NCBI GenBank assembly: GCA_021814695.1
Contig: JAKAHY010000002.1
Span: 8,920-72,919, forward strand
Reading direction: 5' to 3'
DNA length: 64,000 nucleotides
Source of the DNA: a bacterium
GTDB taxonomy: Bacteria; Patescibacteriota; Minisyncoccia; UBA6257; JAGOQP01
In this document: positions 2,232-49,500 of the stretch, piece by piece
Layout of the letters: every line of letters starts with the position of its first letter
Numbering within the stretch: position 1 is the stretch's first letter
Made by a program: the position numbers and the translations under genes
The notes under the pieces: model-generated
Told to the model about the DNA's origin: nothing
What the model saw: only the letters and a program-made list of their open reading frames with translations
Database searches by the model: none

Positions 2232-2266
2232 AACAAAATCACCCGCAAGGGGTGATCTTATTTTTG
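2232..2266. terminator. Bidirectional terminator (downstream of the GIY-YIG gene)
   Basis: ATCACCC-gcaa-GGGTGAT with T-runs on both sides. Confidence 0.55.
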
Positions 2267-2290
2267 TGGAGATGGGAGAGTTGGCTCCGA

Positions 2291-2530
2291 CTAAACTAAA
2301 TGCTTGTTTCTAAAAGCTATTCCCGAACCACTTTTCAGATATTTTTCAAAGTTGATCGCCTGTTCCTTGTTATGAAAAGTGCAGTGCCAAGCAATAATAA
2401 ATGGCGCTCTACTTGAGCTATATTTGGAACCATAACTATTATGTTCCAATAGTCTTTTCTTAATATCAATTGTGATGCCCGTATAGAAACTCCCATCTTT
2501 TAAACTGCGAAGAATATAGACAAAATACAT
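2291..2530 (-). CDS. GIY-YIG nuclease-domain protein (small stand-alone UPF0213/YhbQ-like)
   Basis: 79 aa; the YFVYILRSLKDGSFYTGITIDIKKRLLEHN motif matches the GIY-YIG core. Confidence 0.85.
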   Translation of the reverse strand: MYFVYILRSLKDGSFYTGITIDIKKRLLEHNSYGSKYSSSRAPFIIAWHCTFHNKEQAINFEKYLKSGSGIAFRNKHLV

Positions 2531-2597
2531 ATTATCTATAATTATATGGCCCTCCTTCGCATAAAGCTACGGAGGACTCACTACTCGCACCATAAAA

Positions 2598-2626
2598 CTC
2601 CCCAGATGGGGAGTTTTATTGCAATG
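2598..2626 (-). terminator. Terminator downstream of tmRNA
   Basis: AAAACTCCCCA-tc-TGGGGAGTTTT, perfect 11 bp stem followed by TAT. Confidence 0.5.
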
Positions 2627-2672
2627 CTTCTTGTGCAAGGAGTGCTTGCACTACGAAGCCTTGGCGAAGTAG

Positions 2673-2988
2673 TGGAGATGGCGAGAGTTGAACTCGCGTC
2701 CAGAAAGAGGGATTGAAAGCGTCTACGGGCGTATCTTCTTTTGGAAGCTGATTTGCTTTCTGATTGTCCCTACGGATACGAAAGCGCTTTCCGTGGGTAA
2801 GCCTCAAATATAACACCGGCGATTTCCCCATGAGACATCGGGAGCCGATGGCTTACGCACGAACTAAAAAGTTCTTAAGCGTATGCAAGTGCTACATTTC
2901 TGTTAGCAGATTTGTTTTGGCGGATTTACAAGTCGCCGCTTGACCCGCAACTTTCAAAGAACTCTATCTGTCAAAGCCCAGCATCCCC
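2673..2988 (-). ncRNA. ssrA: tmRNA (SsrA)
   Basis: Minus strand: 5' GGGGATGCTGGGCTTTGACAG... and 3' ...GGACGCGAGTTCAACTCTCGCCATCTCCA (T-arm plus acceptor, CCA not encoded). Immediately downstream of smpB. Putative tag ORF GCT AAC AGA AAT GTA GCA CTT GCA TAC GCT TAA, giving ANRNVALAYA. Confidence 0.85.
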
Positions 2989-3426: not shown

Positions 3427-3470
3427 CTGTTTATTTATGATAGTGCCTTGTGGGATTTTTTTGCAAGCGA

Positions 3471-3481
3471 TGTGATATAAT
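3471..3481 (+). promoter_or_regulatory. Extended -10 promoter TGTGATATAAT. The same element precedes the genes at 5697, 8397 and 52626, all with short SD-less leaders
   Basis: Identical 11-mer at 3471, 5688, 8367 and 52583; variants at 10652 (ileS) and 18999 (ppsA). Confidence 0.5.
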
Positions 3482-3498
3482 GAAACAAATAAAAAACT

Positions 3499-5643
3499 AT
3501 GAAAAAATCTTCATTAATCGTGGTCATTTTGCTTGTTGTGGCAAGCGTAGGAATGACCGTCATCTTTTCAAATCAAGTGTCGATAAAGGGATTTCTATCG
3601 AGCGTTTATTCTACTGCATCAGGCAGAAATCATATACAGCTGGCAAACGCTCAGTCCTTGGGACAGGGGGTTGTAGTTTTTAAAGCGCAATTTGGCCATT
3701 TGGAAGCAACCGGCCAAGTTGTCTCCGGTATTTCCGGACTAGCGGGGCTGCCGGTGACAAAATTTGTTCCCGACAGAGACCTTTCGGATTCTGAAAAAAA
3801 GCAGGTTGAAGTAAACATCACCGAAGAGAACACCGTTTTCGGATTTATTGTGGCAAAAAACGTTTCATTAGGGCAGGGAATCGGTTTTAACATTCCCCAA
3901 GGAGAAGTTTATAACTACGGTTTTTATGTGAATTCCGACATCCTTCCTCAAGGATGGACATATAACTCTTCTTGCGTAGAGACGGGAGGAAATATTAAAT
4001 TATCTGCCGGCCAACAAAGCGAATGCACGATAGGTTTTTATCTGAAACCAACGCCTGCGCCGGTTACTCCTCCCGCTTCGACGTCCACTCCCGTCTCACC
4101 TCAGGAAGGAGCGTCAGGTACCGTTATTAGTGAAGATTCCGGTTCTGGATCGCTGCAGTTTGTAAAAAATATTTTGGACTTAAGTACGGGGTGGAAAAAC
4201 CCCGGATCGGATAAAATATTGGACGCAAAAATCGTTGAATTATACGGAAAGAAATTTCTTATTGTTTCGACTCAAAACAAACATTTGCTTGTTTACGATG
4301 CTTCAAACCAGTTTTCGCCGGTTCTTTTGAAAGATAATGATTTATCAGGCAGTAACGTGTCGGCGTTTTATCTTGTGGTTTTAGATAATTTCAATTACGT
4401 ATTTGCCTGGGGAGGAAACTCTGCCAACTACGGATCTTTTAAGATTGAACAAGACGGATCTGCGTCTCTGGTAAAAAGTTACAAACCTGACCAATATAGC
4501 GTTACTCAACCGAATTTGGTTTTCGGGTTGTTTAGAGGGTTAGACGGTAAAGCGTATGGATTTGGAGGGAACGGGGGCGATGGATGGCTAACTATTTATG
4601 ACGTGTCCGATCCGGCAAACATCAGCGAAATTGGATCATATCAAGATGGCTTAGTCGGGAATCACTGCGGCAATTATGGTCTGATTGGATTGGACAGGCC
4701 GCTTCAATGGAATACTTCTCAACAAGGGAACAAGCTTTATCTGGTAACTCATGCGGACCAGTGCGTCCAGCGGCTGCATACTTCCGGAGACGCCAGAATT
4801 TATATTTTTGACGTTTCTGATCCAAAAAATCCGCAGCTTTCCCATCAATATGAGCTTTCCGGTTCTTTTAACCACATACCTTCGGACGCGACTAAGGCCG
4901 AACAGACATTTCTTTTTGGCGGGATCGCCGACATTGCCGTTGATTCAAATTCGGGTAAGGTTTTTGATTTTTACAGGACGGTTTTTGATTGGCAGGGGCC
5001 ATCCTGGTCTCAGATAGCAAACATAGTGCATGGTACTTTGTTTAGATACAGAACCGGACTGGTCACTCTTTCACTGCAATCGGACGGTTCTCTAAAAGAA
5101 TTGTCGCGGGCTTTATTGTGCGAACAAAAGGGCCCAATGTATGATGGTGGCGGTCCGCAATATTATCGATGCGGCGACGTGGATGGAAACGACAAAAATA
5201 CCCAAGGCGGATATGATTATTCGGCAAGAAATTCTCAACAAAATTACAACGGAGTTTTTCTCCTCAGTGGGCCGGGAAATAGCGGTCAGGTGGGCTTACT
5301 AAGGAGTGATAATAGTTTTGTTGTCATTCCCGATACCGCCGGAGAGATGACTAAATTTAAGACGGCTATTAAAGATTCATCTTATTATTCGAATATCTAT
5401 AATCCCGCTATCAATGGTGTTGTGACCCAGGTTGACAGTAAAACATTTGCCATCTATCAATTTGATAGTTATTCGTTAAGCGTCGTTAAGGTTTTGTTGT
5501 CGCAATCTCTTGTGGGGGGATCGAAAAATCCCTCTCCTCCAGTGACCGGAGTTGCGCCTTCGGCAAACGTACCACTAACATCACCCGCATTTTCATTTAA
5601 TGCGCTCCTGAACATCTTCAGAAGGATACTTAACAACTACTAA
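3499..5643 (+). CDS. Secreted/surface LVIVD-repeat (beta-propeller) protein, paralog 1
   Basis: N-terminal signal/TM segment; repeated (Y/I)xDVSDPxNP LVIVD-like motifs; Pro/Ser/Thr linker; conserved C-terminal tail AFSFNALLNIFRRILNNY. Confidence 0.7.
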   Translation: MKKSSLIVVILLVVASVGMTVIFSNQVSIKGFLSSVYSTASGRNHIQLANAQSLGQGVVVFKAQFGHLEATGQVVSGISGLAGLPVTKFVPDRDLSDSEKKQVEVNITEENTVFGFIVAKNVSLGQGIGFNIPQGEVYNYGFYVNSDILPQGWTYNSSCVETGGNIKLSAGQQSECTIGFYLKPTPAPVTPPASTSTPVSPQEGASGTVISEDSGSGSLQFVKNILDLSTGWKNPGSDKILDAKIVELYGKKFLIVSTQNKHLLVYDASNQFSPVLLKDNDLSGSNVSAFYLVVLDNFNYVFAWGGNSANYGSFKIEQDGSASLVKSYKPDQYSVTQPNLVFGLFRGLDGKAYGFGGNGGDGWLTIYDVSDPANISEIGSYQDGLVGNHCGNYGLIGLDRPLQWNTSQQGNKLYLVTHADQCVQRLHTSGDARIYIFDVSDPKNPQLSHQYELSGSFNHIPSDATKAEQTFLFGGIADIAVDSNSGKVFDFYRTVFDWQGPSWSQIANIVHGTLFRYRTGLVTLSLQSDGSLKELSRALLCEQKGPMYDGGGPQYYRCGDVDGNDKNTQGGYDYSARNSQQNYNGVFLLSGPGNSGQVGLLRSDNSFVVIPDTAGEMTKFKTAIKDSSYYSNIYNPAINGVVTQVDSKTFAIYQFDSYSLSVVKVLLSQSLVGGSKNPSPPVTGVAPSANVPLTSPAFSFNALLNIFRRILNNY

Positions 5644-8330: not shown

Positions 8331-8360
8331 ACAATCCCCCTAGCTGGGGGATTTTTTTGC
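8331..8360 (+). terminator. Rho-independent terminator
   Basis: ATCCCCCTAG-CTGGGGGAT followed by TTTTTTT. Confidence 0.6.
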
Positions 8361-8396
8361 AAGCAATGTGATATAATAAAACAAATAAAAATAACC

Positions 8397-10580
8397 ATGA
8401 AAAAATATTCATTAATTGTGATTATCTTACTTGTTGTTGCAAGTATAGGGATTACCGCTATCTTTTCAAGTCAAGTGTCGATAACCGGATTTCTTTTGAG
8501 CGTTTACTCAACTGTTTCGGGGAGCAATCAAATACAGAGAGTAAATGCACAAACGACAGGCCAAGGAACCATATTATTCCAAGGCCAATTCGGTCATCTT
8601 GAATCGACCGGAAAGGTCACTACCGGAATTTCGGGCTTATCCGGACTTCCGGTGATGAAATTTGTTAAAGACCGTGACCTATCTAGCGATGAAAAAAATC
8701 AGATTAGAGTGGATGTTATTGAACATAACACTCCTTTTGAATTTGTAGTTGCAAAAAATATTTCGCTTGGAGAGGGTGTTAATTTTAATATTCCCGTAGG
8801 TTCGACATATAGATATAGTTTTTATGTTCACCCCGACTCGATTCCCTCCGGATGGGTTTATTATTCCGGTTGTTTAGAGACCGATGGGAATGTTTCGGTA
8901 CTGGCCGGTCAGCAAAGTACTTGCAGCATAGGATTTTATTTAAAGCCCGAAACAATCTCACCCCCTCCGGTCACATCAACATCTACGATCACGTCTACTC
9001 CTTCGGTAGGTGTTTCGGGAACTGTTGTCGGTGAAGATGCCAGCGCAGGATCGTTGCAGTTTGTAAAAAACGTTTTGGATTTAAGCTCACAAAGAAAGGG
9101 CATTATTTATGGAGTTTTGGACGCAAGAACCGTTAATTTGTATGGAAAAAATCTTCTGATAGTTGCTAGAGGTGGAGCTTACTCTGCTACCACTCCAACC
9201 TGGCATATGCTTGTTTATGATATAACCGATCCGCTTGCCCCGGTTCTTTTGAAGGATAATGATATGTCCGGAAGTGGCATAATCTATAGTTCTCCAATGA
9301 CCGGTTTGGCAGTGCTTGATGGCTTTAATTATGTATTTGTCCGTGGAAATGTCGGTTACGGTTCGTTTAAAATTAATCAGGACGGAACTGCGTCTCTTGT
9401 GAAAAGCTATAAATATTCTGAAGTTCAGCAGATACAGACAGATTTAATCAGGGGATTGTTCAACGGTCTGGATGGAAATATATACGGCTACGGAGGGTTT
9501 GTGCAGGATGGAGGACTCGTGCTTTATAACGTTTCCGATCCCGCTAATATTATTCAAGTTGGAACGTATACTAATGGTCTTGAACCAGCGATTGCCATCT
9601 ATGGACAAATTGGATTGAATCGCCAGAGCACTTGGGGCGTTGTTAAAGAAGGAGGCAAACTTTATCTTATTGCTCATGCGGACCAGTTGGTTCTGCGCCT
9701 TCATACGGATTATGATGGAATGATTTATGTTTTTGATGTGTCCAATCCGGCAAGTCCGCAGCTTTCACATATCTATAAAATGTCCAGCTCCTTTAATCAC
9801 CTTCCTTCCGATATGACTTCGTATGAGAAGATGTTTCTTTACGGAGGAGAAGCTAATATATCGGTTGATCCAATATCAAATAGAGTATTTGATTTTTACA
9901 GAACGGTTTTTGATTGGCAGGGACCCAATCAGCTTAAGATAAAAGACATTCCTAAAGGAGCCTTGTTTCGTTATAGAAATGGAATAGCCGTTCTTTCAAT
10001 AGGAATCGATGGTTCTTTGAAATCAAGTTCCAGTAACATATTATTGTGCGAAAGAATAGCCATTCAAGATAATGGGACGTCAGGCGAAGATAAATGTGAT
10101 ACAAAGAGTCCCGAAACGGTTGGGGGATATTATAGTTCCAGTCTTTATGGAAACAGGAATCCTCAAGAAAATTATAACGGAGTATTTCTTCTTGGCGACG
10201 TGAATAATGTCGGACATGTAGGGCTGTTAAAAAGCGATGGTAGTTTTGTTATCATACCCGATCCAACCGGAGAAATGCTTAAATTCAAATCTGTCTTGGC
10301 TGACCCGTCGTATTATTCCGATCCTGGTTTTCGTTCGTCTCCAATCAATGGCATTGTCACTCAAGTTGATAGCAAAACCTTTGCAATATTTCAGATTGAT
10401 AATTATTCCATAAGTGTTACAAAGCTAAATCTATCACAATCCATAACGAGCGTAACACAAAAATCTTCGCCACCTACCACAAATGCCCCTAGTTCATTAA
10501 ATACATCATCTCCTACTCAGACTCCATTTTCCTTCAGCTCGCTCCTGAGAATATTTCAGAGGGTGTTCAATAGTCAGTAA
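8397..10580 (+). CDS. Secreted LVIVD-repeat protein, paralog 3 (close duplicate of paralog 1)
   Basis: The N-terminal 100 aa are nearly identical to the 3499 protein; tail PFSFSSLLRIFQRVFNSQ. Confidence 0.7.
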   Translation: MKKYSLIVIILLVVASIGITAIFSSQVSITGFLLSVYSTVSGSNQIQRVNAQTTGQGTILFQGQFGHLESTGKVTTGISGLSGLPVMKFVKDRDLSSDEKNQIRVDVIEHNTPFEFVVAKNISLGEGVNFNIPVGSTYRYSFYVHPDSIPSGWVYYSGCLETDGNVSVLAGQQSTCSIGFYLKPETISPPPVTSTSTITSTPSVGVSGTVVGEDASAGSLQFVKNVLDLSSQRKGIIYGVLDARTVNLYGKNLLIVARGGAYSATTPTWHMLVYDITDPLAPVLLKDNDMSGSGIIYSSPMTGLAVLDGFNYVFVRGNVGYGSFKINQDGTASLVKSYKYSEVQQIQTDLIRGLFNGLDGNIYGYGGFVQDGGLVLYNVSDPANIIQVGTYTNGLEPAIAIYGQIGLNRQSTWGVVKEGGKLYLIAHADQLVLRLHTDYDGMIYVFDVSNPASPQLSHIYKMSSSFNHLPSDMTSYEKMFLYGGEANISVDPISNRVFDFYRTVFDWQGPNQLKIKDIPKGALFRYRNGIAVLSIGIDGSLKSSSSNILLCERIAIQDNGTSGEDKCDTKSPETVGGYYSSSLYGNRNPQENYNGVFLLGDVNNVGHVGLLKSDGSFVIIPDPTGEMLKFKSVLADPSYYSDPGFRSSPINGIVTQVDSKTFAIFQIDNYSISVTKLNLSQSITSVTQKSSPPTTNAPSSLNTSSPTQTPFSFSSLLRIFQRVFNSQ

Positions 10581-10668: not shown

Positions 10669-13600
10669 ATGTTGAGAAATCTTAAACACTTTAATCCGCC
10701 GGAAATTGAGGAAAAAGTTTTACAGCTTTGGAAAGAAAAAGGGATATTTCAAAAAACACTCAAAGTTCCAAAAGGAAAAAAGGCCCTGCCTACCGGCAGG
10801 CAGGCAAAAATATTTCGGTTTTGGGAAGGTCCACCGACAGCCAATGGCCGTCCCGGAATTCATCATATTTTAGCCCGTTCTTTTAAGGACGTTGTTTTGC
10901 GTTTTAAAACGATGCAAGGGTATACGGTTCCCCGTAAGGGTGGTTGGGATACTCATGGATTGCCCGTTGAAATCCAGGTTGAAAAGCAGCTCGGATTTAA
11001 AACAAAAAAAGATATAGAAGATTACGGAATAGCCGCATTCAACCAAAAATGTAAAGAATCAGTCTGGCTTTATCAAAGCGAATGGGAAAAATTGACCGAA
11101 CGCATGGGTTTTTGGCTGGATTTGAAAAATCCTTATGTCACATACCACAAAGATTACATAGAGTCGCTTTGGTGGATCATCAAACAAGTTTGGGATAAAG
11201 GGTTGATGTATCAAGGGCATAAAGTGGTTCCTTGGTGTACTCGCTGCGGGACAGCTCTTTCTTCCCATGAATTGGCTCAAGGATACAAAGAGCTTACCGA
11301 TACTTCTGTTTACATAAAATTTAAACTTCTTCCAAAACAAAAAATCGGTTCTTTTATAACCGATGATAAAACATACATCTTATCCTGGACGACGACTCCT
11401 TGGACTTTGCCCGGAAACGTCGCTTTGGCAGTCGGAAATAAAATCAAATATATTGCGGCAAAAATCGGAGGAGAGACTTTTATTATTGCGGAAGATCTTG
11501 CCGGATCGGTTTTGGGATCGGAAAATCATAAAGTTATCAATGAATTTAAAGGCGAGTCGATTTCAGGGAAAGAATACGCCCCACTTTTTGAAATTGCGGC
11601 ATTAAAAAAACCGGAATCGTACAAGGTATATCCGGCTAAATTTGTGACAACCACCGATGGAACGGGGGTGGTGCACACGGCCGTAATGTACGGAGAGGAC
11701 GATTATAACCTGGGAAAAGAAGTCGGACTTCCTCAGCATCATACGGTTACCGAACAAGGAACTTTCACAAAAGACGTTAAAGGATTTGAAGGGATGTACG
11801 TCAAAGCCAAGGAGACCGAGGATAAGATACTAGATTATCTAAAGAAAAATAATTTCCTTTTGCAAACACAGGCTTATACCCATGAATATCCTCATTGCTG
11901 GAGATGTGGAACTCCGCTTTTGTATTACGCGCGCAGTTCATGGTTTGTAGCGATGTCGAAACTGAAAGATAATCTGATCGAAAGCAACCAGGGAACCAAC
12001 TGGGTTCCGGCACATATCAAAGAGGGCAGATATGGAGAATGGCTCTCCGAAATTAAAGATTGGAATTTTTCACGGGAAAGATATTGGGGCACCCCACTGC
12101 CGATCTGGACGTGCGAGAATTGTGGAAACCATAAAGCTGTTGGAAGTTATAAAGAGCTTTCGGAACATCTTCCTTCTAGTACCAACAGATATATTCTTGT
12201 CCGTCATGGAGAAGCGGGGCAAAATGTTTCCAATATAATCAACTGCGACCCCAAAGATAAGGATAAATACCCGTTAACAACCAATGGAATAATCCAGGCG
12301 AAGAGAACTTCCCTGAGCCTCAAGAAAAAAATAAAAAAAATAGACGCGATTATCTCGTCGGATTTTATTCGGACAAAGGAAACCGCAAAAATTATCGGCG
12401 ATGAATTTGGAATAAAGAAAATAATCACCGATCCGCTTTTGAGGGAAGTTAACATGGGAGATTTTAACGGGGACAATGTTTCTCGTTACCACGAGTACTT
12501 TTCTTCGCTTGAAGAAAAATTTATGAAACGGACCCCTAACGGAGAAAACCTCAGAGATCTGGCCGCAAGAAGCTACGATTTTATACAAAAATGTGAAAAA
12601 AAATACAGCGGGAAAACTATTGTTGTGGTAGGGCATGAATATCCGCTGTGGATGGCGGAGACCGTTCTTTCTGGATGGAGTCAGGAAGAATCGGTGTCGG
12701 AAAAAGAAAAAAGAGGTCCCGATTTTATAGAAGTCGGAGGATTTGATTCCGTTACTTTTGTTCCGGCATCAAGAGATGAACAGGGAATCTGTGATTATCA
12801 TAAGCCATATGTGGATTCAATCAGCATCCCTTGCGAAAAATGCGGAAAAAAGATGAATCGAGTTAAAGAAGTTGCCGACGTATGGTTTGATTCGGGGTCA
12901 ATGCCATTTGCCCAAGATCATTATCCTTTTGAGAAGGGTGATAAAGTCGGGAAAGCGCCCCAATCGTTTCCGGCCGATTATATCTGTGAGGCAGTCGATC
13001 AGACCCGCGGGTGGTTTTACACTCTTATGGCCGTCTCTACATTATTGGATTATGAAACGCCGTATAAAAACGTCGTTTGCCTAGGGCATATAAACGACAA
13101 GCATGGACAGAAAATGTCCAAATCAAAAGGGAACATTGTTGATCCATGGATGATAATAGATAAATATGGCATTGATGCCGTTAGGTGGTATTTTTACACC
13201 GTTAATGCTCCGGGGGAGCCGAAGAATTTTGACGAGAATGAGGTTGCTAAAGTACTGAGAAAATTCAGCATGACTCTTTATAATTCGTTCGCGTTTTTGG
13301 CGCTTTATGGAAAACAGAAGGTAAGTATCCAAAAGAAACCTTCATCGCCGAATATTTTGGACAGGTGGATTTTGGCAAGGCTAAATCAAACAACTGTCGG
13401 AGTTTCGGACAAAATGGACGCATATGATTTCTTGGCTACCGGACAAATAATAGAATCGTTTATTGACGATCTTTCCAGATGGTACATTCGCCGATCGAGA
13501 AAGAGATTCCAAAAAATTTCGGATAAATCGGATTGGGGTACGGCGACCGGTGTTTTGGCGTATGTTTTGGCCGAATTTTCAAAAGTGATCGCTCCCTTTA

Positions 13601-14223
13601 CTCCATTTTTCGCCGAAGCTCTTTACAGATCCATAGCCGAATTTTGTTCGTTTAGCGCAAAAGAATCCGTTCATCTCGAATCATGGCCGGAGGGCAGGGT
13701 TTTTAATGACGATGCGGTTATGTCGGAAGCCATGAAACAGATAAGAGACTACGCCAGTGCTGTTTTGGCAAAAAGAGCCGAAGTTGGAATCAAAGTGCGG
13801 CAGCCTTTGAGCTTGTTGAAAATAAGAAGCATTAAGTCTAAAGAAAAAGACTCTAAACAATTATTAGAAGTGTTAAGGGATGAAGTTAACGTCAAAGAAG
13901 TTGTGATTGATCCAAAAATAGAAAATGAATTTGAGTTGGATATCAACATCACTCCGGAACTTAAAGCCGAAGGAATTTTGAGGGAAATAGCCCGGACAAT
14001 TCAGGAATTGAGACAAAGTTCGGCATGTGTTCCCAAGGATAAAATAGAAGTTCGCATTTCCGGACCTGCCGACATTGAAGCGGTGGTCAAAAACGGACAA
14101 GCCACGCTTTGCCAATACGTTAACGCCAAAAATATTCTTTTCGGTAAGAGCGGTAAATTTGATTCCGAAATTGAAACCAAAATTGATTCGTCAAAAATTT
14201 GGATAGGTTTAAGAAAAATATAA
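10669..14223 (+). CDS. ileS: Isoleucyl-tRNA synthetase (type 2-like) carrying an inserted histidine-phosphatase (PGAM-like) domain
   Basis: HIGH-like GRPGIHH, KMSKS, WCTRCGT and CENCG/CEKCG zinc knuckles. Residues about 505-690 (nt about 12180-12730) contain LVRHGE...VVGHE. Confidence 0.95.
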   Translation: MLRNLKHFNPPEIEEKVLQLWKEKGIFQKTLKVPKGKKALPTGRQAKIFRFWEGPPTANGRPGIHHILARSFKDVVLRFKTMQGYTVPRKGGWDTHGLPVEIQVEKQLGFKTKKDIEDYGIAAFNQKCKESVWLYQSEWEKLTERMGFWLDLKNPYVTYHKDYIESLWWIIKQVWDKGLMYQGHKVVPWCTRCGTALSSHELAQGYKELTDTSVYIKFKLLPKQKIGSFITDDKTYILSWTTTPWTLPGNVALAVGNKIKYIAAKIGGETFIIAEDLAGSVLGSENHKVINEFKGESISGKEYAPLFEIAALKKPESYKVYPAKFVTTTDGTGVVHTAVMYGEDDYNLGKEVGLPQHHTVTEQGTFTKDVKGFEGMYVKAKETEDKILDYLKKNNFLLQTQAYTHEYPHCWRCGTPLLYYARSSWFVAMSKLKDNLIESNQGTNWVPAHIKEGRYGEWLSEIKDWNFSRERYWGTPLPIWTCENCGNHKAVGSYKELSEHLPSSTNRYILVRHGEAGQNVSNIINCDPKDKDKYPLTTNGIIQAKRTSLSLKKKIKKIDAIISSDFIRTKETAKIIGDEFGIKKIITDPLLREVNMGDFNGDNVSRYHEYFSSLEEKFMKRTPNGENLRDLAARSYDFIQKCEKKYSGKTIVVVGHEYPLWMAETVLSGWSQEESVSEKEKRGPDFIEVGGFDSVTFVPASRDEQGICDYHKPYVDSISIPCEKCGKKMNRVKEVADVWFDSGSMPFAQDHYPFEKGDKVGKAPQSFPADYICEAVDQTRGWFYTLMAVSTLLDYETPYKNVVCLGHINDKHGQKMSKSKGNIVDPWMIIDKYGIDAVRWYFYTVNAPGEPKNFDENEVAKVLRKFSMTLYNSFAFLALYGKQKVSIQKKPSSPNILDRWILARLNQTTVGVSDKMDAYDFLATGQIIESFIDDLSRWYIRRSRKRFQKISDKSDWGTATGVLAYVLAEFSKVIAPFTPFFAEALYRSIAEFCSFSAKESVHLESWPEGRVFNDDAVMSEAMKQIRDYASAVLAKRAEVGIKVRQPLSLLKIRSIKSKEKDSKQLLEVLRDEVNVKEVVIDPKIENEFELDINITPELKAEGILREIARTIQELRQSSACVPKDKIEVRISGPADIEAVVKNGQATLCQYVNAKNILFGKSGKFDSEIETKIDSSKIWIGLRKI

Positions 14224-30299: not shown

Positions 30300-30340
30300 C
30301 AAAAACAAAAATTACCCAAACGGGTAATTTTTGTTTTGGG

Positions 30341-30466
30341 TGTTGACGGGGTAGGATGCGGGGTGGTCGAGGGGCTGCAAGCCCCTCGTGTTGGAAATTA
30401 TTCAAAACCGAGGGTTTTGAAGGAGCGAATATAATGAGCGACGTCCGATTTCCCGTTACCCGCTCA
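30341..30466 (+). repeat. tRNA-trailer mini-element copy E1 (ends with a duplicate of the tRNA-Gly(GCC) 3' end)
   Basis: Contains hairpin CGAGGGGC-tgcaa-GCCCCTCG, then tgttggaaatt, then aaaccgagggtttt, ending in tcccgttacccgctca. Confidence 0.6.
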
Positions 30467-30502
30467 AAAACAAAAAGCACCACAAGGGTGTTTTTTGTTT
30501 TC

Positions 30503-30650
30503 TGTCCGCCCGGAAGGGAGTCTCACGTCGCTCCGACATTGCGTCGGAGCTCCCAAGACACCCTCGGTTTCTTGACGCTCCTCCGGAGCTTTTTCCTACA
30601 CGGGAGATTAAGCATCTCCCGACCCCTCTCTATTCAATTCCTTGTTGACG
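30503..30650 (-). repeat. tRNA-trailer mini-element copy E2 (minus orientation; ends with a tRNA-Lys 3' end duplicate)
   Basis: Minus strand: aattgaatagagaggggtcgg, hairpin GGAGATGCTTAATCTCC, cgtgtaggaaaaag, cgtcaagaaaccgagggtgtcttggg, then gtgagactCCCTTCCGGGCGGACA. Confidence 0.6.
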
Positions 30651-30689
30651 AACAAAACAAAAAATATTCACAAAGGATATTTCTTATTT

Positions 30690-30826
30690 TGTCCGCCCGG
30701 AAGGGAATCTCACGTCGCTCCGACCTTGCGTCGGAGCTCCTTAAAACCATTCGGTTTTAATATTTCCTCCACGGAAAACCTTCGGTTTCCCGACCCCATC
30801 CGATTTGATTCCTTTACTGACGAATA
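30690..30826 (-). repeat. tRNA-trailer mini-element copy E3 (minus orientation; ends with a tRNA-Lys 3' end duplicate)
   Basis: Minus strand: ggaatcaaatcggatggggtcgg, hairpin GGAAACCgaaGGTTTTCC, gtggaggaaatat, hairpin TAAAACCgaatGGTTTTA, then gtgagattCCCTTCCGGGCGGACA. Confidence 0.6.
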
Positions 30827-35509: not shown

Positions 35510-35544
35510 AAATCCCATTCGGGATTTTTATTTTTGCTTGGACT

Positions 35545-35681
35545 CCGGAAATTGAATCAGAAGGGGTCGGGGAACCTGTGGTTCCCCGTGTAGGAAAAAG
35601 TCCGCCCTGGGCGGACGTCAAGAAACCGAGGGTGTTTTGGGAGGAGTGAAACGACGACGTGAGATTCCCGGCAGCCCGACG
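35545..35681 (+). repeat. tRNA-trailer mini-element copy E4 (ends with a tRNA-Pro 3' end duplicate; followed by a second terminator and a 5' fragment of another copy at 35730-35748)
   Basis: ggaaattgaatcagaaggggtcgg, hairpin GGAACCtgtGGTTCC, cgtgtaggaaaaag, hairpin GTCCGCCctgGGCGGAC, cgtcaagaaaccgagggtgttttggg, ending gtgagATTCCCGGCAGCCCGAC. Confidence 0.6.
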
Positions 35682-35772
35682 AAAATAAAATTCCCCTTTA
35701 GGGGAGTTTTATTTATGTTTGGGTTTCAGGGGAATTGAATCGGAAGAAAAATGTTCTTAAATTTGATATACT

Positions 35773-47791: not shown

Positions 47792-47839
47792 CTCCGAGCA
47801 TGTCTCGGAGATTTTTTTAATCAAAAAATAATATTTGAA

Positions 47840-47960
47840 AATATCCCGACAAGTGAGGGGATTTTGTATAGTCCTTCTTCGCATAAAGCTTCGAAGGACA
47901 CTTTTCGTCTGGCTTGCACTTCGTAGCTCGCCAGGGCGAAGAAGTGAGCGGGTAAGGGGA
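47840..47960. repeat. Perfect about 121 bp direct repeat, copy 1 (duplicate of the tRNA-Gly(TCC) 3' end plus about 105 nt of trailer)
   Basis: Identical to 48069-48188. Confidence 0.8.
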
Positions 47961-48068
47961 AGTCTTACGCTCACCCCCGACCCCCGCTTAAGAAACCTTC
48001 GGGTTTCTTACGTCCCTATTTTCCAACACGGGGGTTCGCATTCGACTCCCAAACTCACCCACAAAAAA
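47961..48068 (-). repeat. tRNA-trailer mini-element copy E5 (rearranged family member) sitting between the two 121 bp direct repeats
   Basis: Minus strand carries gtgttggaaaatagg, hairpin GACGTAAGAAACC-cgaa-GGTTTCTTAAGC and gggggtcggggg modules. Confidence 0.5.
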
Positions 48069-48188
48069 ATATCCCGACAAGTGAGGGGATTTTGTATAGT
48101 CCTTCTTCGCATAAAGCTTCGAAGGACACTTTTCGTCTGGCTTGCACTTCGTAGCTCGCCAGGGCGAAGAAGTGAGCGGGTAAGGGGA
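48069..48188. repeat. Perfect about 121 bp direct repeat, copy 2 (overlaps the true tRNA-Gly(TCC) 3' end and trailer)
   Basis: Identical to 47840-47960. Confidence 0.8.
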
Positions 48189-48941: not shown

Positions 48942-49014
48942 GGGCCGTTAGCTTAGTTGGTAGAGCGCCTCGTTTGCAACGAGGAGGTCACCGGTTCGAA
49001 TCCGGTACGGTCCA
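48942..49014 (+). tRNA. tRNA-Ala(TGC)
   Basis: GGGCCGTTAGCTTAGTTGGTAGAGC... anticodon loop TTTGCAA, G3:U70, T-loop TTCGAAT. Confidence 0.9.
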
Positions 49015-49060
49015 CATAACAAAAAAATTGCCTAGCGCAATTTTTTTGTTATGATGAATC

Positions 49061-49184
49061 AGGGTCGGTTTGAATATTTAGGGGTCGGGGTATTTGTAAA
49101 TACCCCGAGTAAGAAAATTTGAGAAACCGTGGGTTTCTCACGAACGAATGAAATGAGTGAGGTGAGATTCCGGTACGGTCCACA
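49061..49184 (+). repeat. tRNA-trailer mini-element copy E6 (ends with a tRNA-Ala(TGC) 3' end duplicate)
   Basis: tttgaatatttaggggtcgg, hairpin GGTATTtgtaAATACC, cgagtaagaaaatt, hairpin TGAGAAACCgtgGGTTTCTCA, ...ggtgagaTTCCGGTACGGTCCACA. Confidence 0.6.
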
Positions 49185-49188
49185 AAAT

Positions 49189-49500
49189 ATGAAAAAATCA
49201 GAATATCTTTTGAGAAGTTTTATAAATGCGGCTGGAGTATTTGTTTATGTAGCATTGATTGCCTGGCTGGGTTTTAACAGCAAAACAATTTTTGGAGAAG
49301 CTCCAAGTTTTATTGCGCCATTGTTTATGCTTCTTTTGTTTGTCGTGTCGGCTTGTATAACGGGCCTATTGGTCTTGGGTAAGCCAATTCTTATGTATTT
49401 GAACAATCAGAGAAGAGAGGCCATTGTTTTATTTTCGGTTACTCTTAGCTGGCTCGTATTGTTTTTGGCGATTATCGCGACTGCTCTTGCCTTAAGATAA
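49189..49500 (+). CDS. Small hypothetical membrane protein (3 TM segments)
   Basis: ATG immediately after element E6. The track ORF from 49129 would read through the repeat and is unlikely. Confidence 0.4.
   Translation: MKKSEYLLRSFINAAGVFVYVALIAWLGFNSKTIFGEAPSFIAPLFMLLLFVVSACITGLLVLGKPILMYLNNQRREAIVLFSVTLSWLVLFLAIIATALALR

Follow-up and report, generated by a model that had tools for sequence, protein, structure and literature searches.

In the window (the whole 64-kb stretch of DNA analyzed), an intact tRNA-Ala(TGC) gene with a G3:U70 pair and no encoded CCA is followed by a short unit, E6, and then by the gene for a small conserved membrane protein. The distance from tRNA-Ala to the next gene is 168 bases, with E6 occupying approximately 49017 to 49184, and four assemblies of this species (GCA_027423275.1) carry the same E6 sequence. 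The parts of the locus are as follows.

48942 to 49015, + strand: tRNA-Ala(TGC), the target gene (Rfam tRNA model, 72.9 bits; end at 49014/15 by ARAGORN/Rfam)
49001 to 49016, + strand: repeat copy 1 (A), an exact 16-mer that is part of the working tRNA
49015 to 49053, + strand: variable left part (y'), an A/T-rich, terminator-like 17-bp hairpin with a T-run (MFE -19.1 kcal/mol, z -8.4)
49061 to 49075, + strand: A', antisense of the target junction (CAGGGTCGGTTTGAAT) and 5' strand of helix P1, read from the alignment
49081 to 49107, + strand: invariant GGGGUC motif and hairpin P2, from invariant columns and the local fold
49108 to 49120, + strand: purine-rich joining strand, AGUAAGAAAA in E6 and GUGKAGGAAA in the family consensus, nearly invariant in alignment A1
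49121 to 49139, + strand: hairpin P4, GAGAAACC-GUG-GGUUUCUC, with compensatory changes across the family
49140 to 49161, + strand: P5 region, ACGAAC-GAAUGAAAUGA-GUGAG, running into the end of the conserved core; the module is also in the Gly-GCC copy and in L010
49162 to 49168, + strand: pseudo-T-loop GTGAGAT, an element-borne mutated form of TTCGAAT (A1 columns 196 to 203)
49169 to 49184, + strand: repeat copy 2, most likely the displaced original tRNA 3' end, and 3' strand of P1; followed by AAAT and ATG
49189 to 49500, + strand: downstream gene, outside the element, for a conserved 103-aa membrane protein (156 homologues)

The original prediction that E6 ends in a sequence identical to the tRNA-Ala(TGC) 3' end is borne out, as the exact 16-mer TCCGGTACGGTCCACA has just two copies in the 64 kb (49001 to 49016 and 49169 to 49184), a count that is unchanged when two mismatches are allowed and that compares with 0.01 matches expected by chance from shuffled sequences. 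The distance from this repeat to the ATG, given earlier as 5 nt, is 4 nt, with the repeat ending at 49184 and AAAT preceding the ATG at 49189 to 49191. Repeat copy 1 spans T-loop position 60, the T-stem 3' strand, the acceptor 3' strand, the discriminator, and CA, and is presumed to have been brought in by the element; the second 16-nt copy and the AAAT before the ATG most likely represent the original end of the tRNA, pushed downstream together with its native flank. The flank at a related locus (L137) likewise begins with AAAT. The last 20 nt before the ATG are then displaced host DNA and the element proper ends at 49168, so that E6 does not form the entire 5' UTR of the gene, as had been proposed, but the accompanying view of a discrete inserted element, bounded by a tRNA 3'-end repeat and lying between tRNA and gene, is supported by orthologous loci without the element.

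The 156 homologues of the 49189 open reading frame (ORF) are almost all 103 aa long, which identifies ATG 49189 as the real start; the public gene model (P0001, 123 aa) begins instead at a GTG inside E6, an example of how the element misleads gene callers. The product has no Pfam family match. Several homologues of the gene lie downstream of tRNA-Ala in related genomes, including two (L137 and L136) in which the 103-aa gene follows tRNA-Ala after 38 to 46 nt and the element is absent, and two others (L134 and L135) that retain a short insert and, displaced, a fragment of the tRNA 3' end. None of these four loci has a covariance-model match, and they mark E6 as an insertion into an older tRNA-Ala-to-gene arrangement.

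The covariance model matches E6 at 49054 to 49184 (90.3 bits, E value of 1e-21), one of six matches in the window, although this score is partly circular because E6 is among the model seed sequences. The P2 and P4 folds of E6 match the family folds, its pseudo-T-loop makes up the inner portion of P1, where there are tandem G.A pairs and a U.U mismatch, and hairpins equivalent to its y' hairpin are at the same place in other copies; a simple terminator scan did not call the E6 hairpin, which has too few G-C pairs. The A' arm of E6 (GGGUCGGUUUGAAU) is degenerate and has lost the T-stem complement, so that of P1 only the inner helix and six outer pairs are left, G3:U70 among them. This A' has an alternative partner on the other side of the hairpin, the 3' end of the tRNA itself (-31 kcal/mol, z -6.1). 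Other tRNA-Ala(TGC) copies (L150, L182, L247, and L249) have full A' arms. E6 is thus a slightly decayed copy and, judged by the state of its own A' arm, probably no longer mobile.

The window contains six copies, E6 among them, which follow five of its eight tRNAs (Ala-TGC, Gly-GCC, Lys-CTT, Pro-CGG, and Gly-TCC); no similar unit lies behind the Arg-TCG, Ala-CGC, and Ser-TGA tRNAs. The sister copies are the following.

30336 to 30467, + strand: copy after tRNA-Gly(GCC), covariance model 84 bits, 26-nt repeat
30504 to 30824, - strand: two tandem copies after tRNA-Lys(CTT), 30691 to 30824 and 30504 to 30653, covariance model 95 and 99 bits
35536 to 35745, + strand: copy after tRNA-Pro(CGG), 35536 to 35681, 85 bits, then a truncated second 5' fragment to about 35745
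47838 to 48188, - strand: circularly permuted "type B" copy after tRNA-Gly(TCC), core 47946 to 48061, 31 bits

The window units have in common GGAUUCGAAC, GGGGUCGGG, a hairpin, CCGUGKAGGAAA, AAGAAACC-GNG-GGUUUCUU, GAGC...CGAC, and GUGAGAU. The tRNA-Lys(CTT) array is bounded by a 53-nt perfect repeat composed of the tRNA end and terminator (repeat family D5), and the tRNA-Gly(TCC) core is flanked by two perfect 123-nt repeats (repeat family D2). Copies within this genome are 60 to 80% alike and thus do not point to recent transposition; the one exception is the perfect 123-nt Gly-TCC repeat, which could come from gene conversion. The A' of this fresh-looking Gly-TCC copy is imperfect, showing that exact pairing is not required.

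A motif scan with one genome per species gives at least 119 loci, and among the loci listed there are 92 plus 18 matches to covariance model R1, which was built from 28 copies. Eleven of the listed loci are outside the Patescibacteria; none has an R1 match, and they are accordingly chance pattern matches. A further motif scan, on metagenome sequences, adds 120 loci, with 95 R1 matches in the first 93 (L138 to L230), bringing the matches beyond the window to about 205 in the genome and metagenome loci listed. Viral contigs contain seven pattern matches, none upheld by R1, and a phage origin was rejected on this ground. In these searches, the family is found only in Patescibacteria. Rfam 15 at the gathering threshold reports only tRNAs and tmRNA in the whole window, and its E-value mode (≤10 on the element regions, ≤1 on four of the best-scoring relatives) returns only hairpin noise; full-text literature searches gave no description of the mini-element family. 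E6 is very probably a member of a large family of nonautonomous, protein-less insertion elements, and its homing-type insertion, conserved structured core, target-specific closing stem, and nonautonomous character are firmly supported.

Copies share one layout, which in target-gene orientation reads x (gene body), A, y', A', core, tail, A, and original downstream DNA. The y' part is variable, often consists of a hairpin and T-run, and is missing in some copies. At tRNAs, A' is the reverse complement of the T loop, the T-stem 3' strand, and part of the acceptor stem, and the tail is a mutated version of the few bases upstream of the junction (GUGAGAU for UUCGAAU), often with one extra base. The core is ordered GGGGUC, P2, GUGKAGGAAA, an optional P3, P4, GAGC, an optional P5, and CGAC, and the closing helix P1 is formed by A' paired with the tail and A. 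A circularly permuted form, closed through P2 rather than P1, is represented by the Gly-TCC copy of the window and three further loci (L003, L009, and L023).

This structure was tested by counting pairs in two alignments, A2 and A4, which were aligned to the model, so that the following counts are biased toward the model structure.

A2 (genome loci): 89.3% paired versus 72.2% shuffled; 530 versus 174 two-sided changes; 35 to 60% with partners slid
A4 (metagenome loci): 90.2% paired versus 71.7% shuffled; 540 versus 183 two-sided changes; 36 to 60% with partners slid

No shuffle of A2 equals the observed pairing or the observed two-sided changes, and compensatory changes beyond controls, the generic mark of a structured RNA, are present. 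RNAalifold on a MAFFT alignment recovers P2 only; P1 and P4 were set by hand and then tested by pair counts. In the hand-specified structure, P2 is 100% paired and five of its seven pairs covary, and in A2 and A4, P2 is 98.9 to 99.5% paired with G-C/A-U swaps and P4 is 94 to 98% paired. All four Watson-Crick pair types occur at every P1 position in both alignments, so that the sequence of P1 differs from copy to copy and tracks the local target. Its inner pattern is fixed (A-U, U.U, U-A, Y-R, tandem G.A/A.G, A-U, and C-G), with the Y-R pair following tRNA position 57. P2 tetraloops are GNRA in 30 cases versus 2 for the reverse complement, a strand bias that marks the tRNA-sense strand as the folded one; the P4 loop is GNG or GNRA. 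The helices contain 196 G.U versus 142 A.C combinations, a weak excess. The folded molecule is likely an RNA in the tRNA sense, with folded single-stranded DNA as a candidate alternative that the modest G.U excess leaves. Where A' is full length (L049 and L018), P1 amounts to the acceptor stem stacked on the T stem, with the discriminator at its end. Most A' arms stop short of the acceptor end and leave the CCA uncovered, for which reason a tRNA-like minihelix and a primer-binding site were both rejected.

Of the 97 R1 matches analyzed, 43 are at the 3' ends of tRNAs that represent 25 anticodons, and a further 15 show clear repeats at sites other than tRNAs. Repeats in this set are 16 to 111 nt long (median, 26), the 123-nt repeat of the permuted Gly-TCC copy being outside the set. 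In tRNA-targeting copies the repeat begins 13 to 21 nt upstream of the tRNA end. A tmRNA gene is likewise targeted (L204), and the junction in tRNA and tmRNA genes coincides with the boundary of T loop and T stem. Protein gene targets include the C terminus of EF-G in two genomes (L015 and L033), the EF-G 5' end in one of them (L033), where the insertion is antisense and its repeat, at least 96 nt long, takes in the promoter region, one gene start used in two genomes (L063 and L092), and a ribosomal protein gene 3' end (L026); several copies lie just beyond the ends of MurC and RecG genes. Junction contexts (GAAT, ATGG, ACCA, GGCC, and GAAC) have no shared target-adjacent motif, and a Cas12/TnpB-style guide was rejected for this reason.

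The gene body always runs without a break into the upstream copy of the repeat, which keeps target genes whole, and this duplication of the gene end explains why the element is tolerated. The two copies of the ribosomal protein coding end at L026 differ at seven positions, all synonymous, which indicates that one of them evolved as coding sequence in another lineage and came with the element; these differences are not adenine-specific, and a template/variable pair of a diversity-generating retroelement was rejected. Long repeats start at the junction and extend through the T-run of an intrinsic terminator, as in the Lys (53 nt) and Gly-TCC (123 nt) repeats, both perfect, and in a 49-nt repeat at L046 with one mismatch. 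Four elements have a truncated second 5' fragment downstream (A-y-A' and the start of the core) with differing breakpoints, which fits copying past one unit. An origin of A' as a fold-back palindrome was rejected, since the Gly-TCC copy has 108 nt of nonpalindromic sequence between A and A'.

The element itself has no ORF, and a Pfam scan of 40 ORFs, chosen from the 56 window ORFs of at least 140 aa, contains no integrase, transposase, reverse transcriptase, TnpB, or IscB. Clustering of ORFs beside approximately 240 copies shows no enriched enzyme family, only housekeeping genes that are recurrent targets. Two candidate partners were considered and rejected. In five related loci, a large serine recombinase gene overlaps the 3' end of a tRNA, and in one of them (L047) the gene is directly beside a core, but the recombinase elements are separate tandem insertions that share a target (L083 and L097; at L047 the intervening repeat is degenerate). 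A 79-aa GIY-YIG gene occupies a ~390-nt insertion at the tmRNA 3' end of the window, with the same kind of flanking repeat, and 4 to 5 of 12 GIY-YIG genes are just downstream of a core; close homologues of the window gene follow tmRNA in many Patescibacteria with no core, and a shared target preference explains the link better. Other genes in the window include pilus and ComF competence genes and one for a CCA-adding enzyme.

Taken as a whole, the reading that we somewhat favor is a protein-less insertion element whose guided, copy-type homing is inferred from these features. The occurrence of one core at dozens of unrelated targets, together with sense and antisense copies of the junction, suggests that base pairing probably selects the target. 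The mechanism proposed, nucleic-acid-guided homing of the copying type, is put forward tentatively. The element would insert near a conserved gene end and supply a replacement end, usually with a hairpin or terminator, pushing the original end downstream; the target would be chosen by pairing of A' and the tail with it and not by a sequence-specific protein. Spread would proceed by template-directed copying from the junction, on a tandem or circular template and with an enzyme acting in trans, and copying would normally stop by annealing at the second target copy (A). Variable repeat length with a fixed left edge, overshoot fragments, and a foreign-derived repeat copy all fit such copying. At the E6 locus, the insertion split an ancestral tRNA-Ala-to-gene unit, leaving the native junction of tRNA end and ATG at the right edge and placing a strong hairpin upstream. 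It is possible, if far from assured, that the core acts as a guide or bridge-like RNA, or represents a new small ribozyme; the two target-derived segments, antisense A' and sense tail plus A, would then direct the trans enzyme to its sites of nicking and of primed copying. By themselves, the repeats are explained just as well by ordinary site-specific recombination.

Such recombination could take the form of a mini-element consisting only of attP, mobilized by a tyrosine or serine recombinase encoded elsewhere, which would recombine the T-arm and 3' end carried by the element with the tRNA gene in the manner of classical tRNA-integrating islands, with the core as protein-binding arm DNA rather than RNA. 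The repeat from T loop to 3' end, the restored tRNA, and the tandem arrays are its textbook signature, the altered T loop of the displaced copy is at the place where such integrases cross over, and the serine recombinase genes at five tRNA 3' ends, one of them beside a core, point the same way. This account is nonetheless rather unlikely: the same core is at dozens of unrelated targets, including protein genes without a T-arm; the helices stay paired as their sequence changes and the loops are strand biased, unlike protein-binding arm sites; serine recombinase elements and mini-elements are separate tandem insertions; no recombinase is among the Pfam-scanned window ORFs; and circles of 170 to 230 bp are very stiff. 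An element acting at the RNA level (a retrozyme, viroid-like, or trans-splicing type), in which the core, as a new small self-cleaving or self-ligating ribozyme, would use P1 as a substrate helix cut at the mismatched junction and RNA of unit length or in circular form would be copied to DNA, could explain the circularly permuted, compact, multihelix core, circular permutation being typical of hammerhead and twister ribozymes. It could also explain the P1 junction, which always has a mismatch or extra nucleotide beside the tandem G.A pairs, the long fresh-looking repeats that stop at a terminator T-run, where the target transcript is expected to end, and a layout of A', core, and target 3' part that mirrors an internal guide sequence, ribozyme, and 3' exon. 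We nevertheless consider it improbable, as no Rfam ribozyme family matches at E values up to 10, the scanned window ORFs include no reverse transcriptase, the L033 element antisense to the EF-G 5' end is a poor fit to joining of sense transcripts, and remnants are truncated at variable points and not at one site.

The family could alternatively be a structured, tRNA-linked noncoding RNA or processing module of the host, in which P1 mimics an acceptor/T-arm minihelix and thereby directs the trimming of co-transcripts by RNase P, RNase Z, or RNase III; its spread would depend solely on duplication and on DNA uptake with homologous recombination in the flanking conserved genes. The acceptor plus T-stem stack formed by full-length A' arms and the G3:U70 retained in the residual E6 helix would suit this role, and the pilus, ComF, and CCA-adding enzyme genes in the window and the conserved nature of the target genes, which favors transfer by homologous recombination, would suit this route. 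It is very unlikely, however, given the patchy distribution (three of the eight window tRNAs lack a copy, and orthologous sites are empty), the tandem and truncated copies, the copies in protein genes, including antisense insertions, and the A' arms, most of which fall short of the acceptor end; it also leaves the match of A' to each new target unexplained. A role restricted to the 49189 gene, as its 5' UTR or regulator, starts from the position of E6 directly upstream, the strong hairpin and T-run that stand between the tRNA promoter and the gene, and one promoter-like site (TTGCCT-16-TATGAT, 49028 to 49055). Promoter-like sites in the E6 region are no more numerous than expected by chance, though, the 20 nt immediately upstream of the ATG are of host origin, and approximately 200 relatives adjoin unrelated genes or none, so that regulation of this gene cannot be the general role of the element; as the reason for its presence, such a role is highly improbable. 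An influence of E6 on expression of the 49189 gene is plausible all the same, with the hairpin, the promoter-like site, and processing of the tRNA-like end as candidate sources.

Whatever the mode of spread, this abundant, conserved, structured element is absent from Rfam and marks many tRNA gene ends and some housekeeping gene ends in Patescibacteria, and its presence or absence offers strain-level markers. If the target-derived stem sets the insertion site, the element would be a very small, naturally programmable DNA insertion system, and would also point to an enzyme yet to be recognized in the reduced genomes of Patescibacteria. If the guide or ribozyme reading of the core is right, it would constitute a natural, protein-less, reprogrammable homing cassette that settles beside gene ends without disrupting them.

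Among known systems, the mini-elements resemble tRNA-integrating islands and prophages (tyrosine integrases with the T-loop sublocation) in the repeat starting at the T loop, the new 3' end, and the tandem arrays. The flanking tRNA 3' repeat and restored tRNA of such integrating elements are present and an integrase of their own is not; the mini-elements also differ in their size of ~130 to 190 nt, in a folded core with an antisense target copy, and in placing this core at many unrelated targets, including protein gene ends, with repeats of 16 to 123 nt. Free-standing GIY-YIG homing cassettes, such as T4 SegB at tRNA genes, likewise home to conserved tRNA regions, but the mini-elements have no ORF and the GIY-YIG cassettes checked have no core. 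They also differ from MITEs, which have terminal inverted repeats conserved throughout the family and a short target duplication of constant length, in that their inverted arms (A' and A) vary from copy to copy, reproducing the local target, and the duplication is 16 to 123 nt. The CTX phage attP(+) site and integron attC sites share with them inverted copies ~100 nt apart that fold into a target-mimicking stem with a mismatched center; those sites have fixed sequences or structures used by XerCD or IntI, whereas the mini-element stem varies with the target and its loop is a conserved module.

Ribozymes and guide RNAs offer a further set of likenesses. The small self-cleaving ribozymes (hammerhead, twister, hairpin, HDV-like, pistol, and hatchet) give no Rfam match; circular permutation and the mismatch at the P1 junction are indirect hints of a possible new self-cleaving class. 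The order of a 5' antisense guide, a structured core, and the target 3' part recalls the internal guide sequence of group I introns and engineered trans-splicing ribozymes; unlike group I and II introns, the core is only ~90 nt, has no catalytic elements (no Rfam match), and leaves the functional gene copy uninterrupted. Against the IS110/IS1111 bridge RNA (seekRNA) and OMEGA RNAs, the mini-elements have both sense and antisense target copies and a duplicated target, and no DEDD, TnpB, or IscB gene or conserved target-adjacent motif is near the copies. For the window in particular, IS110/IS1111 membership is contradicted by the lack of a DEDD/Tnp gene among the scanned ORFs and by the long duplications, and OMEGA membership by the lack of a TnpB/IscB gene among these ORFs and of a constant junction motif. 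Like these systems, however, the mini-element combines a structured RNA of ~100 to 180 nt with a programmable target-matching segment, and as in OMEGA RNA, the scaffold is followed by ~16 nt identical to the target.

A public gene model (P0001; window 49129-49500, 123 aa) begins at a GTG codon within E6, the mini-element between tRNA-Ala(TGC) and the conserved membrane protein gene at 49189. Homologues show this start to be wrong: the correct form is the shorter, 103-aa protein with its start at 49189. In the related loci L134 (168-240) and L135, 40 nt separate tRNA-Ala(CGC) from a displaced tRNA 3' fragment (GGGTCCGACTCCCGGTGGATCCACA), which sits immediately upstream of the orthologue of the 49189 gene and may have been left behind by a previous insertion.

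A further insertion, of approximately 390 nt, lies at the 3' end of the tmRNA:
2266-2690, reverse strand, GIY-YIG cassette
2293-2529, reverse strand, GIY-YIG nuclease gene (79 aa) within the insertion

The insertion has the repeat CAACTCTC[G/C]CCATCTCCAC on both sides (2672-2690 and 2266-2283) and looks like a free-standing homing-endonuclease cassette. The order smpB-tmRNA-GIY-YIG also occurs in other Patescibacteria, with infC next in one set. Two motifs are common to the tmRNA downstream sequence (2542-2660) and the 108 nt 3' of tRNA-Gly(TCC) (47864-47945 / 48092-48173), namely CTTCGCC..GGC..CGWAGTGCAAGC and a hairpin, GTCCTYCGWAGCTTTATGCGAAGRAGGRC; at the tmRNA the hairpin is immediately upstream of the GIY-YIG start, and GCGAGTAGTGAG, on its 5' side, looks like a core-tail remnant.

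Other protein genes of note in the window are a pair of paralogues for large proteins and a synthetase-type gene:
3499-5643, forward strand, 714 aa, LVIVD repeat match
8397-10580, forward strand, 727 aa, paralogue of the 3499-5643 gene
10669-14223, forward strand, isoleucyl-tRNA-synthetase-type protein, 1184 aa

The paralogues have common blocks, 4.9 kb apart and approximately 70% identical, and near-identical upstream regions (3449-3495 versus 8345-8391). The class I synthetase domain of the 1184-aa protein is interrupted by a His_Phos_1 (histidine phosphatase) domain at residues 509-673.

L046, L077, and L089 carry remnants comparable to one in the window, a partial second copy that lies downstream of the tRNA-Pro element's second repeat and breaks off immediately short of the GGGGTC motif:
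35716-35745, forward strand, second hairpin and truncated element start (GGGGAATTGAATCGGAAG)

Cores lacking the target-derived helix P1 were found near tRNA genes at other loci:
L003 4487-4560 and L009 551-640, permuted (P2-closed) cores, each abutting the 3' end of an opposite-strand tRNA gene
L062 4780-4825 and L088 570-661, cores filling the tRNA-Tyr/tRNA-Thr spacer of approximately 100 nt, one in each of two genomes

Read-through transcription at L003 or L009 would yield an RNA carrying the core with antisense tRNA sequence 3' of it. In L088, L087, and L073 the core passes on its 3' side straight into a tRNA D-arm.

L047, L083, L087, L091, and L097 contain genes for large serine recombinases (289-545 aa), and the 3' end of each overlaps that of a tRNA gene in convergent orientation. 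These insertions form a distinct class of tRNA-integrating element, with sites in common with the mini-elements.
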